NCBI RefSeq assembly: GCF_003334315.1
Contig: NZ_QOWR01000003.1
Source of the DNA: Escherichia coli
Lineage (GTDB): Bacteria > Pseudomonadota > Gammaproteobacteria > Enterobacterales > Enterobacteriaceae
Length of the DNA stretch: 64,000 bases
Direction: 5' to 3' (one strand)
Shown here: piece by piece, positions 37,016-41,972 of the stretch
How the letters are laid out: each line of letters starts with the position of its first letter
How positions within the stretch are numbered: the stretch's first letter is position 1
Made by a program: the position numbers and the translations under genes
Notes under the pieces: model-generated
Told to the model about the DNA's origin: nothing
Database searches by the model: none
Seen by the model: the letters and a program-made list of their open reading frames with translations, nothing else

Positions 37016-38098
37016 TTTCTTTGCTTTGTAAAGCGCCAAATCTGCCGATTTCAACCACTCACGATAGTGACTCATTTGTGGGTTCAGCGGCGCAACCCCC
37101 ACACTAATCCGTAAAGTTACCTGTGGCGTATTCGGCAAACGTAATGTATTTAGCCCTTCATGCACTCGTAACATGGCGGTAATAGCGCTCTCAGCTGGCG
37201 TACCGGACATGATTACTGCAAACTCATCGCCGCCAAACCGACCAATCACATCGCTACCGCGCAGGGTAATTTGTAACTGTCGGGTAAGCGCCACTATCGC
37301 TTCATCGCCCACATCATGGCCCCAGGTATCGTTGATGCTCTTGAAATGGTCGATATCGATAATCAGTAACGTTGCATCGCGATTATGCCGCCGACAGTTA
37401 TCAAATTCATTGCGTAACATAGTTTCCCAATGACGTCGGTTATACACGCCCGTCATGCCGTCGCGGGTACTCATGACCTGCAACCTGCGTTTATGTTCCG
37501 CCAGTTTGGTTGCCGTCTGGTAGCTGACCCAGCCAAACAGCAGAGGATAAATGACAATAATGGGAAGGGAGAGCCACCATTCCAGCGGCGCATTATTGAA
37601 CGACACGGTAATGCCCGTCAGCTCGAGGGTGACAAGGCAGGAAACCACCATCAACACCAGACCCGCGACAAACAGACGGGGGCCGCCTGCCCCCATCAAA
37701 TTCAGACACATAATCATCAACATCGCGGTGGAAGGCAGCACGTTTACGCCCATTACGCCTACCCACATTCCCGCTAATACTGCATCGGTTTTTAAGTTGT
37801 AAATTTCCCGGCTAAGCGGATCGACGGCCCTGCTCGCTATCTGCCAGGCTAAATGCGGCCAGACGAACGCCCAGCCGACCAACACCAGCCACCACCAGCC
37901 CGGCGGCGGGTGCGAAACCAGCGTTGAAGCAATCGGTAAGAACATGCCAGCCAGGCCAACCGCACGGGGTAGTCTGACGCGACGGGCGAAGCGCAGCCCG
38001 GACCGCTGATGTTCGTTTTGAGGAGTTAAAGGAGGTTCCTCCCCATGCGCCGCCGCTTTTTTGAAAAAGTTTTCATCATTCATTATTTTTGGGAACAT
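36983..38098 (-). CDS. dgcC: Diguanylate cyclase DgcC (AdrA/YaiC)
   Basis: 371-aa ORF; N-terminal MASE2-type membrane domain and C-terminal GGDEF domain (RFGGDEF). Confidence 0.93.
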   Translation of the reverse strand: MFPKIMNDENFFKKAAAHGEEPPLTPQNEHQRSGLRFARRVRLPRAVGLAGMFLPIASTLVSHPPPGWWWLVLVGWAFVWPHLAWQIASRAVDPLSREIYNLKTDAVLAGMWVGVMGVNVLPSTAMLMIMCLNLMGAGGPRLFVAGLVLMVVSCLVTLELTGITVSFNNAPLEWWLSLPIIVIYPLLFGWVSYQTATKLAEHKRRLQVMSTRDGMTGVYNRRHWETMLRNEFDNCRRHNRDATLLIIDIDHFKSINDTWGHDVGDEAIVALTRQLQITLRGSDVIGRFGGDEFAVIMSGTPAESAITAMLRVHEGLNTLRLPNTPQVTLRISVGVAPLNPQMSHYREWLKSADLALYKAKKAGRNRTEVAA

Positions 38099-38199
38099 TC
38101 AGAAACAATTTTCCCAAATTATAGAGACGGGGCTAAAGGCAGAAGTATGAAATTTCGGGTGAGCCACTTTCGTAGCTCACCCGTTAGCACTATCAGGTA

Positions 38200-38520
38200 T
38201 CAGGCGGCTTTCTTGAGGCAGGCACTCATAAACTTATTACGATCATCACCTTTCAGAGATTGTTGCGTTGCTTGATTATTACATTCGCGCATCTTTTGCT
38301 GCTGTGGCGTCAAACTTTTTTCACCAGGCGCAGACTTGCTGTTCTTCAGGCAATCACTCATGTAGGTCTTACGAGCATCCCCTTTCAACGCCTGCGCCGT
38401 CGCCTGCTGATTACAGGAGGTCATACGCTGTTGTTGCGGGGTTAAGGTTCTCTCGGCAGCGCCGACGGTGGTTAAAAAAACCAGTCCGAAAAGCAAGGTA
38501 ACCAGTAATGTTATTTTCAT
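38200..38520 (-). CDS. psiF: Phosphate starvation-inducible protein PsiF
   Basis: ORF track 38200..38538 trimmed to ATG 38518-38520 (MKITLLVTLLFGLVFLTTVGA...), 106 aa, internal duplication TPQQQ(R/K)M..CN.QAT.Q.LKGD. Confidence 0.9.
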   Translation of the reverse strand: MKITLLVTLLFGLVFLTTVGAAERTLTPQQQRMTSCNQQATAQALKGDARKTYMSDCLKNSKSAPGEKSLTPQQQKMRECNNQATQQSLKGDDRNKFMSACLKKAA

Positions 38521-38638
38521 AGCACCATCCCTCTTCATGTTTTAACCATGAGCGTTTGCGCCCGTGATCTGCCATTAAGTCTGGTTGCTAACAGCAAAAA
38601 AACCACCCGACAGCGAAAATTCACCGCCGGGCGCGGTT

Positions 38639-40054
38639 TTATTTCAGCCCCAGGGCGGCTTTCATGGTGTAGAAGAGATCGGTCTGGTCGGTCAGTCCAA
38701 CGACATTGGCGGCATGTGGGCCATACGCCGCAATACGCAGCTGACTACCGGTATGTTCTTGTGAATCCTCTTCGGAGTTCCCGTAACTCATCACCATCAC
38801 TGCGCCATCTTTGGTATTTAGCGCCTGGGTGAGGCCCGGCGCTTTGGTGTCCGGCGCAACAATCTGGCTGGCGTGGGCGTGATCAGCGGTGACTATGACC
38901 AGCGTGTTGCCATCCTTTTTAGCGAATTCCAGCGCCCGTTGTACGGCTTCGTCGAGATCGACCGTCTCGCCAATTTGCCCACAAGGATTCGCAGCGTGAT
39001 CCTGTTTATCGATTGATGCACCTTCAACTTGCAGGAAAAAGCCTTTCTCATTTTTACTCAACAATTCAATGGCTTTATCAGTCATCTGCGCCAGGGTCGG
39101 TACGCTGTCATTACGTTGCGGATTAGGCGTACAGGTAACTGCGGGCTTGTCGATATTGCCGTGGTACGTTGCTTTCGGTCCTTGCCAGCGCACTGGCATA
39201 TTGCCGTCAGCAAACAGTCCTAGCAGGGGTTTTTGCTGGTTCGCTTCCGTCACCGCATTCAGTGAGGCAGCATCGCTCACCAACTGATAACCACGCGCCT
39301 GTGCCTGTTCACGCAGCGTTTTTCCCTGCCATTCACCGGCGGTTGCCGTTTCAGCAAAGGTTTTTGCGCCGCCGCCAAGCGTAACATCGGCACGAGCGTT
39401 AAGCAGCTGTTCGGTAATCGATCCTCTCCCGCCTTTTTCTAGCGCGTTACCCGGACATTTTTCACTGGTCGCGCTCGGACCGTAGCATTTGCGCGAGGTC
39501 ACATGTGCCACCAGCGCAGCGGGCGTGGCATCCTGCAACTCTGCGGTAGAAACGTTACCGGTCGCCAGACCTGCGGCTTTTGCCATTTCCAGAATCGTTG
39601 GGTGATCTTTTTCGTGAATATCGACGCCCAGCGCGCCGTTATAGGTTTTGACACCGGTTGACCAGGCGGTTGCTGATGCAGCCGAGTCGGTGACGTAGTC
39701 CGGTTTGCCGGTTTTTTTATTCAGCGCATAGTGAGTGTATTGCCCGGTAAGCGGTAAGGCATCGATACCTTTAAAAAAGCCGCCCGCACCTTCGGCATAA
39801 TTACGTGCGGCAGTAATTTCCGAATCCCCCATCCCATCGCCAATCAGCAAAATAATATTTTTTGCAGGTTTATCGCTAAGAGAATCACGCAGAGCGGCGG
39901 TCTGATCACCCGTTAAGCGGCGAGCACCGCCGGGTGCAGTAATATCGCCCTGAGCAGCCCGGTTTTCCAGAACAGGCATTTCTGGTGTCCGGGCTTTTGT
40001 CACAGGGGTAAACAGTAACGGTAAGAGTGCCAGTGCAATAGTGCTTTGTTTCAC
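38639..40054 (-). CDS. phoA: Alkaline phosphatase
   Basis: ORF track 38639..40123 trimmed to GTG 40052-40054 ([22 protein letters not shown] signal peptide), 471 aa; GGAGA Shine-Dalgarno upstream. Confidence 0.95.
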
Positions 40055-40114
40055 TTTATTTTCTCCATGTACAAATACATTAAAAAATAAAAACAAAGCG
40101 ACTATAAGTCTCGG

Positions 40115-40134
40115 CCGTGACAACTTTATGACAG
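40115..40134 (-). promoter_or_regulatory. Pho box of the phoA promoter
   Basis: Reverse complement reads CTGTCATAAAGTTGTCACGG, about 60 nt upstream of phoA start. Confidence 0.65.
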
Positions 40135-40154
40135 CTGTTGAAAAGATTAACTTT

Positions 40155-40415
40155 TTACTGACGAGGATGCTTCAATAACTTCTTTACGTAATCGCGCAGC
40201 AGCTCCGTATCGTCGTCAGGAATGCTGGCATCGGGCTTTACCTCGTACAGCGCCCCCTCTACCTGATCAATCAACCGCTGTTGGTCATTTTGCGCCATAT
40301 TGCGAAGCATTGCAGTGACGATAATCTCCAAAGCTTCTACCTGCGCACACAGTTCTTTCGACTCTTCTTCTTTTTGGGCAAGCTTAAATAACAACTCAGC
40401 AATGAGATTTTTCAT
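40155..40415 (-). CDS. iraP: Anti-adapter protein IraP
   Basis: 86-aa [43 protein letters not shown]... Confidence 0.93.
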
Positions 40416-40877
40416 GTCTGTATTTCCTTATCCAAAGTATGGAGAAGTTAACATTATGTTTCACAACTTCATAGTGTCTGGAAGTATTATTTTTATGACA
40501 AAGGAAATACTTTGCGCAAATATTTTTTGTTTGATTACCAGCGAAACGTTTCTCTTATTTAAATAACTACCCACACAAAATATAGGCTTTTAATTATCAA
40601 CCTTTATTATAAATAAAAGTTATGAAATATATTCTCTTCGTTAACTTATAATTAAGAGAAAAAAACTCACCGCATGGCCATTTAAGCCAGGAATAAATTA
40701 GCTTCCCGTTCATCATTTTTGTGATCTTGCGCACATCTTTGAGATAACGCACTTTCTTCACCAGTACGTTGCACGCTTTGTCAGCAGAAGATTGCAACAA
40801 TCTTTCAGAAGGCCGCGAATCCCCCGTTTTGTCGTGGTAATGTATGCACTTTGTGTTAGACGGGATAGGTTTTTAAG

Positions 40878-41972
40878 ATGGAAAAACTGCGGGTAGGAAT
40901 CGTTTTTGGTGGTAAATCAGCGGAACATGAAGTGTCTCTGCAATCGGCAAAAAACATTGTCGATGCCATTGATAAAAGTCGCTTCGACGTTGTGCTGCTG
41001 GGCATTGATAAACAAGGGCAATGGCACGTCAGCGATGCCAGCAATTATCTGCTAAATGCAGACGATCCTGCCCATATTGCGTTGCGCCCTTCGGCGACCA
41101 GCCTTGCGCAGGTGCCAGGTAAACATGAGCATCAGCTTATCGACGCGCAAAACGGTCAGCCGTTGCCGACGGTGGATGTCATTTTCCCGATTGTCCACGG
41201 TACGCTGGGCGAAGATGGTTCCTTGCAGGGAATGCTGCGGGTCGCCAATTTACCGTTTGTAGGTTCTGATGTTCTGGCTTCAGCAGCCTGTATGGATAAA
41301 GATGTCACCAAACGTCTGCTACGCGATGCCGGGCTGAACATTGCGCCATTTATTACCCTGACGCGCGCTAATCGTCACAACATCAGTTTTGCCGAAGTGG
41401 AGTCTAAACTGGGGTTACCACTGTTTGTAAAACCGGCTAATCAGGGCTCTTCTGTTGGTGTCAGCAAAGTAACCAGTGAAGAACAGTACGCAATTGCCGT
41501 CGATCTGGCGTTCGAGTTCGATCATAAAGTGATCGTTGAGCAAGGGATCAAAGGTCGTGAGATCGAATGCGCAGTTCTGGGCAACGACAATCCGCAAGCC
41601 AGCACCTGTGGCGAGATCGTACTCACCAGCGATTTCTATGCCTACGACACCAAGTACATTGACGAAGATGGCGCGAAAGTGGTAGTTCCGGCAGCCATTG
41701 CACCAGAGATCAACGATAAGATCCGGGCGATTGCCGTTCAGGCTTATCAGACGTTGGGATGCGCAGGCATGGCGCGTGTAGACGTGTTTTTAACCCCAGA
41801 GAACGAAGTGGTGATCAACGAGATCAACACACTGCCTGGCTTCACCAACATCAGTATGTATCCGAAGCTGTGGCAAGCCAGCGGTCTGGGTTACACCGAT
41901 CTGATCACACGTTTGATTGAGCTGGCGCTGGAGCGTCACGCTGCGGATAACGCATTGAAAACCACAATGTAA
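40878..41972 (+). CDS. ddlA: D-alanine--D-alanine ligase A
   Basis: 364-aa [53 protein letters not shown]... Confidence 0.97.

Follow-up and report, generated by a model that had tools for sequence, protein, structure and literature searches.

PsiF, an exported repeat protein encoded behind phoA in Escherichia coli, and a candidate promoter at the phoA terminator

We analysed a 64,000-nucleotide stretch of Escherichia coli DNA (contig NZ_QOWR01000003.1, here called the window) and found that its positions 38,200 to 40,415 hold the known iraP/phoA-psiF region, a textbook locus that is already annotated and published as a PhoB-activated phoA-psiF operon. psiF encodes a real exported protein whose expression probably does not depend on the phoA promoter alone, and the T-tract of the phoA terminator together with a conserved box behind it forms a candidate sigma-S-type promoter belonging to psiF itself. 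We are confident in the account as a whole, in which the known locus and its activation by PhoB are combined with a leaky terminator, repression by CpxQ, an exported PsiF and a putative psiF promoter.

The window is chromosomal E. coli DNA. In a sequence search, many E. coli chromosomes carried the region with 100% identity, it was matched in 5426 of 5426 complete genomes, and the RefSeq gene order is adrA, psiF, phoA, iraP, ddlA. All features named in the initial annotation were found in place, base for base, on the minus strand, as are all features given here. The identities proposed for iraP, phoA and psiF were also right, as indicated by NCBIfam matches above the cut-offs and by the RefSeq annotation. 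The iraP (yaiB) open reading frame (40155..40415) encodes the 86-residue anti-adaptor protein IraP (137 bits against the full-length equivalog NF007598, cut-off 78), is identical to K-12 IraP at the protein level and lies directly upstream of phoA as claimed. Compared with the K-12 phoA-psiF unit (b0383-b0384) and its upstream iraP (b0382), the genes, their order, the Pho box, the spacer length and the PsiF and IraP protein sequences are the same. The DNA is 98% identical across the region with allelic differences only, namely four amino-acid substitutions in PhoA and two terminator-stem changes after which the bases still pair as G-U wobbles. Rfam, searched at permissive thresholds over positions 37900-40900, returned no RNA family.

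Periplasmic alkaline phosphatase is encoded by phoA (38639..40054, 471 residues). Its GTG start and signal peptide, both noted initially, are borne out by the open reading frame, the 21-residue signal peptide being encoded at 39992-40054, and the protein matches the equivalog NF007810 over its full length (residues 1-471, 897 bits, cut-off 540) in agreement with RefSeq. Pho boxes were taken as 18 bp elements with two direct TGTCA-type repeats 11 bp apart, standing in place of a -35 element. The Pho box reported for phoA-psiF is present as an exact copy of CTGTCATAAAGTTGTCAC at 40117..40134, starting 20 nt past the iraP stop codon; 0.04 matches would be expected by chance even with up to three mismatches allowed, and the half-site score is 12/12 in E. 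coli relatives. In K-12, this sequence is where PhoB was localised upstream of phoA by ChIP-seq, and PhoB binding, positive regulation and PhoB-dependent expression of phoA-psiF have been published for that strain, where the site is identical and deletion of phoB lowered phoA about 200-fold and psiF about 43-fold (PMC10294691). A -10 hexamer, TATAGT (40101..40106), can be read from the sequence 10 nt downstream of the Pho box and is kept in Citrobacter and partly in phoA-less relatives. Under phosphate limitation, PhoB would bind the Pho box and activate the phoA promoter.

The spacer between phoA and psiF (38521-38638) measures exactly 118 nt, the length first given. Calling the two genes an operon is true and at the same time incomplete, as the spacer contains a terminator with a putative second, psiF-proximal promoter behind it. 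Inspection of the spacer for a terminator, suggested in the initial annotation, revealed a conserved intrinsic terminator of phoA (38596..38633) composed of a hairpin (38604-38633) and a U7 tract (38596-38602). In MG1655 the U-tract corresponds to 403,199-403,205. The terminator scan reported a 13-pair stem with 8 G-C pairs followed by T7, the spacer folds with -47.8 kcal/mol (z -3.9) and compensatory changes are seen at 5 of 9 stem pairs among 22 sequences. A hairpin and T run follow the phoA stop codon in every phoA-containing genome examined, and strong versions of the hairpin are confined to genomes that have retained phoA (mean -18 kcal/mol versus -8 to -9 kcal/mol where phoA has been lost).

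Transcription through phoA would meet this structure right after the stop codon, with a substantial share of transcripts expected to read on into psiF. Published DESeq2 counts are 310,112 in wild type and 1,548 in the phoB deletion for phoA, and 32,618 and 755 for psiF (PMC10294691). Divided by gene length, these counts give psiF/phoA RNA ratios per kb of 0.46 in wild type and 2.15 in the deletion, values in which read-through, any second promoter and RNA stability are mixed and short genes are counted less reliably. The RNA-seq data imply that the terminator passes roughly half of the phoA transcripts. This arrangement is similar to the general class of operons whose distal gene is uncoupled by a leaky terminator and a promoter inside the operon: a hairpin and U-tract separate two cistrons, and psiF, as the distal gene, is less abundant at the RNA level and is regulated differently. 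It differs in that the internal promoter is a putative one here, and its -35 region would overlap the terminator T-tract. We met no description of such dual use of a T-tract, as part of a terminator and as a -35 region, for the phoA-psiF locus.

The second element of the candidate promoter is the box C-CAGACT-TAA (38575..38584), which was recognized by sequence comparison as a possible sigma-S-type -10 with a predicted transcription start near 38570-38572. The MG1655 counterparts are 403,218-403,223 for CAGACT and about 403,229-403,231 for the predicted start. As criterion for a sigma-S promoter we used a -10 in which positions -11 and -7 are A and T, accompanied by the sigma-S hallmarks of C at -13 and a downstream TAA. 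The A and T of CAGACT are invariant in 28 of 28 aligned sequences, in one of which (Entomohabitans) the hexamer is followed by TAT and not by TTA; agreement with the -10 consensus is limited to 3-4 of 6 positions and the -35 is poor. The distance from the T-tract to the CAnnnTTA box is fixed at 11-13 nt in all Enterobacteriaceae loci examined, whether phoA is present or absent. In Erwiniaceae the box is likewise found, about 40 nt before the ATG, while Pantoea WMus005 carries CAGAAT followed by AA. Because T-tract and box persist across Enterobacteriaceae, including genomes that have lost both phoA and the hairpin, they may constitute a promoter of psiF itself, probably read by sigma-S, that would allow phoA-independent expression in stationary phase. 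IraP stabilises sigma-S in phosphate starvation, and the candidate promoter would thus connect phosphate starvation to psiF by a second path, via IraP and sigma-S.

Published gene-level expression data link psiF to RpoS and stationary phase. A table of RpoS-controlled genes in strain EDL933 gives psiF a value of 73 and, according to the accompanying text, wild type expresses psiF more highly than rpoS mutants do; the main text of that paper mentions neither phoA nor pstS. In O157 Sakai, psiF goes up at stationary phase without phoA, and psiF is listed as a member of the Crl regulon. The RpoS dependence of psiF could be indirect.

In a plain single-promoter operon, all psiF expression would instead come from transcripts that start at the PhoB-dependent phoA promoter and read through. 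The hairpin would then either terminate leakily or stabilise the 3' end of a processed phoA message, and the T-tract with CAnnnTTA would not be a promoter but act in the psiF leader RNA, for instance as a site for Hfq or an RNase. Such an arrangement would account for the strong decrease of psiF in the phoB deletion, no nearby PhoB site other than that of phoA being reported, and for RegulonDB-derived tables that give phoA-psiF as the only transcription unit for psiF. The Cappable-seq supplementary data contain no start position in the spacer, and the box, a weak -10 match, was not called by a simple sigma-70 consensus scan. However, psiF and its upstream box are kept in genomes without phoA or a recognisable Pho box (for example Salmonella and Pluralibacter), where psiF needs some source of transcription, the psiF/phoA ratio rises without PhoB, and RpoS- and stationary-phase-linked expression of psiF is seen without phoA. 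We therefore consider exclusive read-through rather unlikely and favor a promoter of psiF's own.

The psiF gene (38200..38520) encodes a protein of 106 residues. A longer open reading frame of 112 residues starting from ATG 38538 is also listed; the conserved ribosome-binding site and start favor 38520. The ribosome-binding site and start codon (38517..38537) coincide with a pairing site for CpxQ, where AGGGATGGTG (38523-38532) can form ten consecutive base pairs with CpxQ CACCATCCCT. The duplex has a calculated energy of -28.7 kcal/mol, equalled or bettered by 19 of 8526 background windows (top 0.2%), and GGATGGTGC at the ribosome-binding site is kept across genera in the alignment. Repression of PsiF by CpxQ was validated by immunoblot in a recent preprint (bioRxiv 10.1101/2025.09.11.675593). 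With translation starting from ATG 38520, this envelope-stress sRNA would occupy the ribosome-binding site and lower the amount of PsiF protein. psiF is in this respect similar to known CpxQ targets, envelope-protein mRNAs repressed at the ribosome-binding site, with a 10-bp seed on the Shine-Dalgarno sequence and validated repression, although the psiF case is at preprint level and its pairing was computed for E. coli. A small hairpin is predicted further upstream in the leader (38544..38569) within an insertion of about 27 nt that is found only in Escherichia (E. coli, E. albertii) among the aligned sequences. Behind the psiF stop codon, a predicted hairpin (38156..38183; -25.8 kcal/mol, z -4.7) probably serves as the psiF terminator; its U-tract is weak and it was not called by the terminator scan. 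It also occurs in Salmonella and Enterobacter with changed stem bases, and in the window the conserved adrA/dgcC promoter region (TCTATAAT) follows it closely.

PsiF scores 234.5 bits against NF008560 (cut-off 165). The internal duplication with a cysteine motif that had been noticed in PsiF corresponds to two Pfam PsiF_repeat units (PF07769) at residues 27-59 (E 7e-18) and 71-103 (E 1.6e-15). When delimited as residues 25-59 (38344-38448) and 69-103 (38212-38316), the two repeats have 23 of 35 residues in common. The repeat is conserved: the family comprises 1204 clusters at 50% identity (E <= 0.001) whose members carry 1 to 5 repeats, 259 of 276 repeat units share the same spacing between their two cysteines, and all four cysteines of PsiF are invariant among 65 sequences. 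Expression is documented by the detection of intact PsiF in E. coli colonies (PMC9196203) and of PsiF-3xFLAG on immunoblots (bioRxiv 10.1101/2025.09.11.675593). The mass data further support the claim that PsiF is secreted, since the observed value of 9443.49 Da (PMC9196203) fits cleavage after Ala21, the end of the signal peptide (residues 1-21, 38458-38520), with 9443.57 Da computed for residues 22-106 carrying two disulfides. The published b50 value corresponds to residues 22-71 minus 2 H (PMC9196203).

Structure prediction with AlphaFold2, as had been proposed, yielded two helical hairpins with pLDDT values of 86-95 in the repeats. Taken together with the published intact-mass data, which it fits, the model suggests that the repeats fold as helix-turn-helix hairpins, each locked by a single disulfide, with Cys36-Cys57 and Cys80-Cys101 closing one hairpin each after export and removal of the signal peptide. 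Disulfide-stapled helical hairpins are also known from CHCH-domain and small Tim proteins. This is a structural analogy only, with no sequence relationship: those proteins contain twin CX3C or CX9C motifs whereas PsiF is a bacterial, periplasmic protein of tandem repeats that would have a single disulfide (C-x20-C) per hairpin.

A functional tie between phoA and psiF had been implied. PsiF could act as an accessory factor of alkaline phosphatase, assisting folding or disulfide formation, delivering Zn or Mg or handling released phosphate, which would explain co-transcription. The two genes are adjacent and co-induced in Escherichia, Citrobacter, Kosakonia, Leclercia, Lelliottia, Kluyvera and others, and both proteins are periplasmic and disulfide-bonded. 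Both genes also appeared in an overexpression screen for H2O2 resistance, a weak point in favor as they were among many genes; we discarded the screen as a functional lead because it is too unspecific. Comparative evidence leaves the tie weak, as the loss of phoA in many Enterobacteriaceae has left psiF in place. phoA is absent and psiF intact in Salmonella, the E. cloacae complex, Pluralibacter, Superficieibacter, Siccibacter, Buttiauxella, Pantoea and Erwinia, and at least 13 of the Enterobacterales genomes examined retain an intact psiF under purifying selection without phoA (dN/dS 0.02-0.07 where computable). The Pho box has decayed in Salmonella and is retained in E. cloacae. A role of PsiF as PhoA helper thus appears unlikely from these sequences, because phoA has been lost repeatedly while psiF has stayed under strong purifying selection. 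The wider family also speaks against an accessory factor, in its size and range of repeat numbers as well as in its gene neighborhoods. In Yersiniaceae psiF lies between galTKM (galM) and gpmA. No phoA was found near psiF in Yersiniaceae, Pseudomonas or Bordetella (within 5 kb in the latter two), and no E. coli-type Pho box scoring at least 10/12 was present upstream of psiF in these three groups. Outside Enterobacteriaceae, psiF neighborhoods showed no conserved partner, neighbors in Pseudomonas, Bordetella and Budvicia being unrelated or unassigned. All told, we regard service to alkaline phosphatase as very improbable.

The function of PsiF had been called unexplained, and no assignment was found in the literature and databases searched. 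Pfam, a sequence search of solved structures and Foldseek gave no fold or sequence relative of known function, with nothing meaningful among the solved structures and, among the Foldseek matches listed for AFDB50, essentially only PsiF-named or PsiF-repeat proteins plus two oddly named rows at 45-55% identity. Distant kinship with the helical periplasmic chaperones CpxP, Spy and ZraP (LTXXQ) is hardly credible: both PsiF repeats open with LTPQQ, the LTPQQQ(R/K)M stretch is presumably similar to the motif of these proteins, which are likewise helical, periplasmic and stress-induced, and CpxQ, the repressor of psiF, is cut from cpxP mRNA, but hhalign returned a probability of 0.13% and Pfam no LTXXQ match, so that membership was rejected. 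Papers on Herbaspirillum and Yersinia ruckeri contain psiF in gene lists only. The 40 matches to 'psiF' in PMC12239559 were a false lead, all of them being 'PsifA', the sifA promoter.

In its general properties, PsiF is similar to the small sigma-S-dependent periplasmic proteins YbgS, YgiW, YahO and OsmY. Like them it is small, secreted and induced in stationary phase, and they were found beside PsiF in native mass spectrometry of colonies and in RpoS arrays. They are unrelated to PsiF in sequence and fold, and the Pho input is additional in PsiF. We tentatively infer, with low confidence, that PsiF is a non-enzymatic periplasmic stress protein that acts by binding, for example, client proteins or anionic envelope or solute ligands, independently of alkaline phosphatase, and that its phosphate-starvation label largely reflects its position behind phoA. 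A more specific version is considerably more speculative, and we think it improbable in this full form. Here, the repeat of this basic protein (pI 9.7) would be a periplasmic binding module, a disulfide-locked hairpin with an invariant Gln-Gln/Asn/Arg face for phosphate-containing or other anionic ligands or for unfolded envelope proteins during starvation. psiF would primarily be a sigma-S and CpxQ envelope-stress gene whose own promoter reuses the T-tract of the phoA terminator, with Pho membership a lineage-specific by-product of its place behind phoA.

As first described, the finding re-identified a textbook locus and by itself changes nothing, and the value that remains is modest. psiF is nevertheless a conserved and well-expressed E. 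coli gene, and the comparisons narrow the search for its function, pointing to phoA-independent control by stationary phase and envelope stress. The analysis further offers a structural model of two disulfide-stapled hairpins and defined bases that can be mutated in the terminator, the CAGACT box and the CpxQ site. Should one element indeed serve both terminator and promoter, it would illustrate in compact form how the downstream gene of an operon retains regulation of its own.

Many E. coli chromosomes match the 38100-40600 region with 100% identity, and 5426/5426 complete E. coli genomes contain it. For an identical strain, RefSeq annotates the gene order ddlA(+), a 67-aa hypothetical ORF, iraP, phoA, psiF, adrA/dgcC and proC(+). 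By ORF listing and direct reading, iraP (40155-40415), phoA (38639-40054, GTG start preceded by GGAG) and psiF (38200-38520) were placed on the minus strand, with exactly 118 nt between phoA and psiF (spacer 38521-38638, minus strand). All three proteins scored well over the cut-offs of their NCBIfam equivalog models. Compared with K-12, the DNA is 98% identical, PsiF and IraP are unchanged and PhoA carries 4 residue differences. An alternative 112-aa psiF ORF begins at 38538; other genera keep only the 38520 ATG with its ribosome-binding site. The 67-aa ORF (40597-40800, minus strand) lies in the A+T-rich iraP-ddlA intergenic region; it is a "hypothetical protein" in RefSeq strains (WP_001300163.1), is absent from the annotation of the K-12 record and found no match in an NCBIfam search. 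In E. coli FLI21 (NZ_CP139808.1, locus L089), an IS5-family insertion sits between iraP and phoA, with the annotated iraP truncated and parted from the phoA promoter region.

The Pho box CTGTCATAAAGTTGTCAC (40117-40134) begins 20 nt past the iraP stop codon, is followed 10 nt downstream by a TATAGT hexamer and occurs once in the window, where 0.04 occurrences are expected by chance. Since in K-12 the identical box, upstream of phoA, is bound by PhoB in ChIP-seq (PMC10294691) and Fitzgerald et al. reported positive regulation of phoA-psiF by PhoB (PMC10294691), the phoA-psiF operon with a Pho box beside iraP, as described in the initial annotation, is accurate and already known.

The initial annotation also suggested inspecting the spacer for a terminator, and one was found. 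The phoA stop codon is followed immediately by a G+C-rich hairpin of 13 pairs (38604-38633, minus strand) and then by a run of seven T (38596-38602, minus strand); for the whole 118-nt spacer, the predicted folding energy is -47.8 kcal/mol (z -3.9). A hairpin with T run occupies the same place in every phoA-containing relative examined, with differing stem sequences, and compensatory double changes affect 5/9 consensus pairs in a 22-sequence alignment. Together, these results indicate a genuine, conserved intrinsic terminator in the spacer. An Rfam search of the region returned no known RNA family. Relative to K-12 (L088:2170-2200), the window's stem carries two transitions, A to G in the left arm and C to T in the right arm. 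Because both turn Watson-Crick pairs (G-C and A-U) into G-U wobbles, this allele is slightly weaker, with pairing kept. A terminator-like score is also obtained on the plus strand (38623-38637; hairpin and TTTATTT) as a result of an A-run on the 5' side of the hairpin; no convergent gene is present to use it.

DESeq2-normalised counts, without length normalisation (PMC10294691), were 310,112 for phoA and 32,618 for psiF in the wild type (psiF/phoA per kb 0.46) and 1,548 and 755 in the phoB deletion (2.15). Under phosphate limitation psiF is thus overwhelmingly PhoB-dependent, with a PhoB-independent baseline relatively higher than that of phoA. Either the phoA terminator is leaky or psiF has an additional transcript source.

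Across Enterobacteriaceae the iraP-[phoA]-psiF-[adrA]-proC neighbourhood is conserved, with phoA often missing. It is deleted in the E. cloacae complex, one Leclercia and Superficieibacter, where a Pho box (11-12/12) and traces of the leader and start of phoA persist 200-300 nt upstream of psiF. At six of the compared loci (L004:4700-5000, L026, L030, L031, L033, L039), the former phoA promoter is now directed straight at psiF. Salmonella retains a decayed, still recognisable Pho box and -10 element. In Salmonella enterica, the iraP-psiF spacer (L003:4700-4765) additionally contains an inverted repeat of 23 bp without mismatches, CATAGCCGCTTCGTTTTTATTTT ... AAAATAAAAACGAAGCGGCTATG, around a 19-nt loop; the left arm shows homology to the -10 and leader region of E. 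coli phoA, and the decayed Pho box lies just upstream. Other genomes have no Pho box at all. In all of these genomes psiF is intact with four Cys, and dN/dS values of 0.02-0.07 were obtained for it at unsaturated synonymous sites. Yersiniaceae carry psiF between galM and gpmA; in Pseudomonas and Bordetella its surroundings are unrelated and lack a Pho box. Because psiF is kept without phoA or a Pho box, these comparisons argue that PsiF is not a dedicated PhoA partner and that Pho control of psiF is lineage-specific.

Across 28 Enterobacteriaceae, alignment of the 160 nt preceding psiF revealed a constant order of elements: hairpin, GGTGG and T5-8, 11-13 variable nt, a (C)CA-n-n-n-T-TA box, a variable stretch and a conserved AAGGATGGTGCTATG. 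In E. coli the box is CCAGACTTA (38575-38584, minus strand) and reads C(-13) CAGACT TAA, with an invariant A at -11 and T at -7; both C at -13 and TAA belong to the features of sigma-S promoters. Pantoea and Erwinia likewise have the box, about 40 nt before the ATG. The hairpin typically folds at -16 to -24 kcal/mol where phoA is present and has decayed where phoA is lost (means -9.4 and -7.5 kcal/mol), the T-tract and its spacing to the box being kept in both cases. Since only the hairpin decays, it behaves as the terminator of phoA, and the T-tract and box as an element that psiF itself needs. We therefore infer a psiF-proximal candidate promoter that shares the terminator T-tract; a simple consensus scan of the spacer called no promoter at the box. 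In O157 EDL933, psiF is among the RpoS-controlled genes (value 73), with higher expression in the wild type than in rpoS mutants, and phoA and pstS are absent from the main text of that study. In O157 Sakai, psiF is up at stationary phase without phoA, and a Crl regulon listing includes psiF. Such published data are consistent with a psiF promoter that is sigma-S-linked and independent of phoA. If the candidate promoter is right, phosphate starvation would reach psiF by two routes, through PhoB via the phoA promoter and through IraP, which stabilises sigma-S, via the candidate promoter. The psiF leader further carries a ca. 27-nt insertion, with a small predicted hairpin, only in E. coli and E. 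albertii (38544-38569, minus strand); Citrobacter and Salmonella have different, longer insertions at the same place.

Contacts between psiF RNA and the envelope-stress sRNA CpxQ close to the Shine-Dalgarno sequence were reported in a 2025 preprint, with PsiF-3xFLAG up in a cpxQ deletion and down on CpxQ overexpression (10.1101/2025.09.11.675593). Using the CpxQ sequence of the K-12 record, we found CACCATCCCT to be perfectly complementary to AGGGATGGTG (38523-38532). Pairing with the single-stranded portion of CpxQ yields a duplex of -28.7 kcal/mol, a value attained by only 19/8526 background windows. Conservation of GGATGGTGC exceeds what a Shine-Dalgarno sequence needs, owing to CpxQ pairing. 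The psiF ribosome-binding site is thus an sRNA target. At the other end of the gene, a hairpin (38156-38183, minus strand) is kept in Salmonella and Enterobacter, where its stem bases differ, and the conserved TCTATAATTTGGGAAAAT downstream of it (38110-38125) is probably the adrA/dgcC promoter. Read-through from psiF to adrA is possible because the U-tract of this hairpin is weak.

The secreted protein with a Cys-containing internal duplication proposed initially is borne out. PsiF comprises two Pfam PsiF_repeat units, and its family (1204 clusters at 50% identity) has 1 to 5 repeats per member in 147 representatives, with the consensus T-x-Q-Q-x-K-M-x-x-C-N-x-x-A-x-x-x-x-L-K-G-x-x-R-K-x-F-M-S-x-C-L-K and a constant Cys-Cys distance in 259/276 units. 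Structure prediction, also suggested at the outset, was carried out using AlphaFold2 with a 65-sequence alignment; each repeat was modelled as a helix-turn-helix hairpin (helices 28-42 and 47-60, 72-86 and 91-103; pLDDT 86-95 within repeats). Because linker confidence is low and pTM is 0.37, the model does not fix how the two hairpins are placed relative to each other. A conserved Gly midway between the two Cys of a repeat brings them face to face, and by helical periodicity the conserved residues fall on the inner face of each helix, so that much of the conservation is structural. Native MS gave a monoisotopic PsiF mass of 9443.4898 Da (PMC9196203), which corresponds to residues 22-106 with two disulfides (9443.5741 Da calculated), and the theoretical b50 of that study, 5450.6551, equals residues 22-71 minus 2 H. 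These matches imply that the signal peptide is removed after Ala21 and that Cys36 and Cys57 are bonded within their repeat. The calculated mass in the supplement summary table of the same study, 9518.64 Da, equals reduced residues 21-106 and lies 75 Da over the measured mass, a discrepancy removed by cleavage after Ala21 and two disulfides (9443.57 calculated, 9443.49 observed). Mature PsiF is a basic protein (pI 9.7) with a high content of Gln, Asn and Lys. Sequence and structure searches found no PsiF relatives of known function. The LTPQQ start of each repeat resembles the LTXXQ motif of CpxP and Spy; profile comparison for such a relationship was negative. Our best guess, held with low confidence, is that PsiF acts independently of PhoA as a non-enzymatic stress or binding protein of the periplasm.

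In conclusion, our analysis adds to a known locus a documented terminator, a candidate internal promoter sharing its T-tract, a CpxQ site and a structural model of PsiF with experimental mass support.
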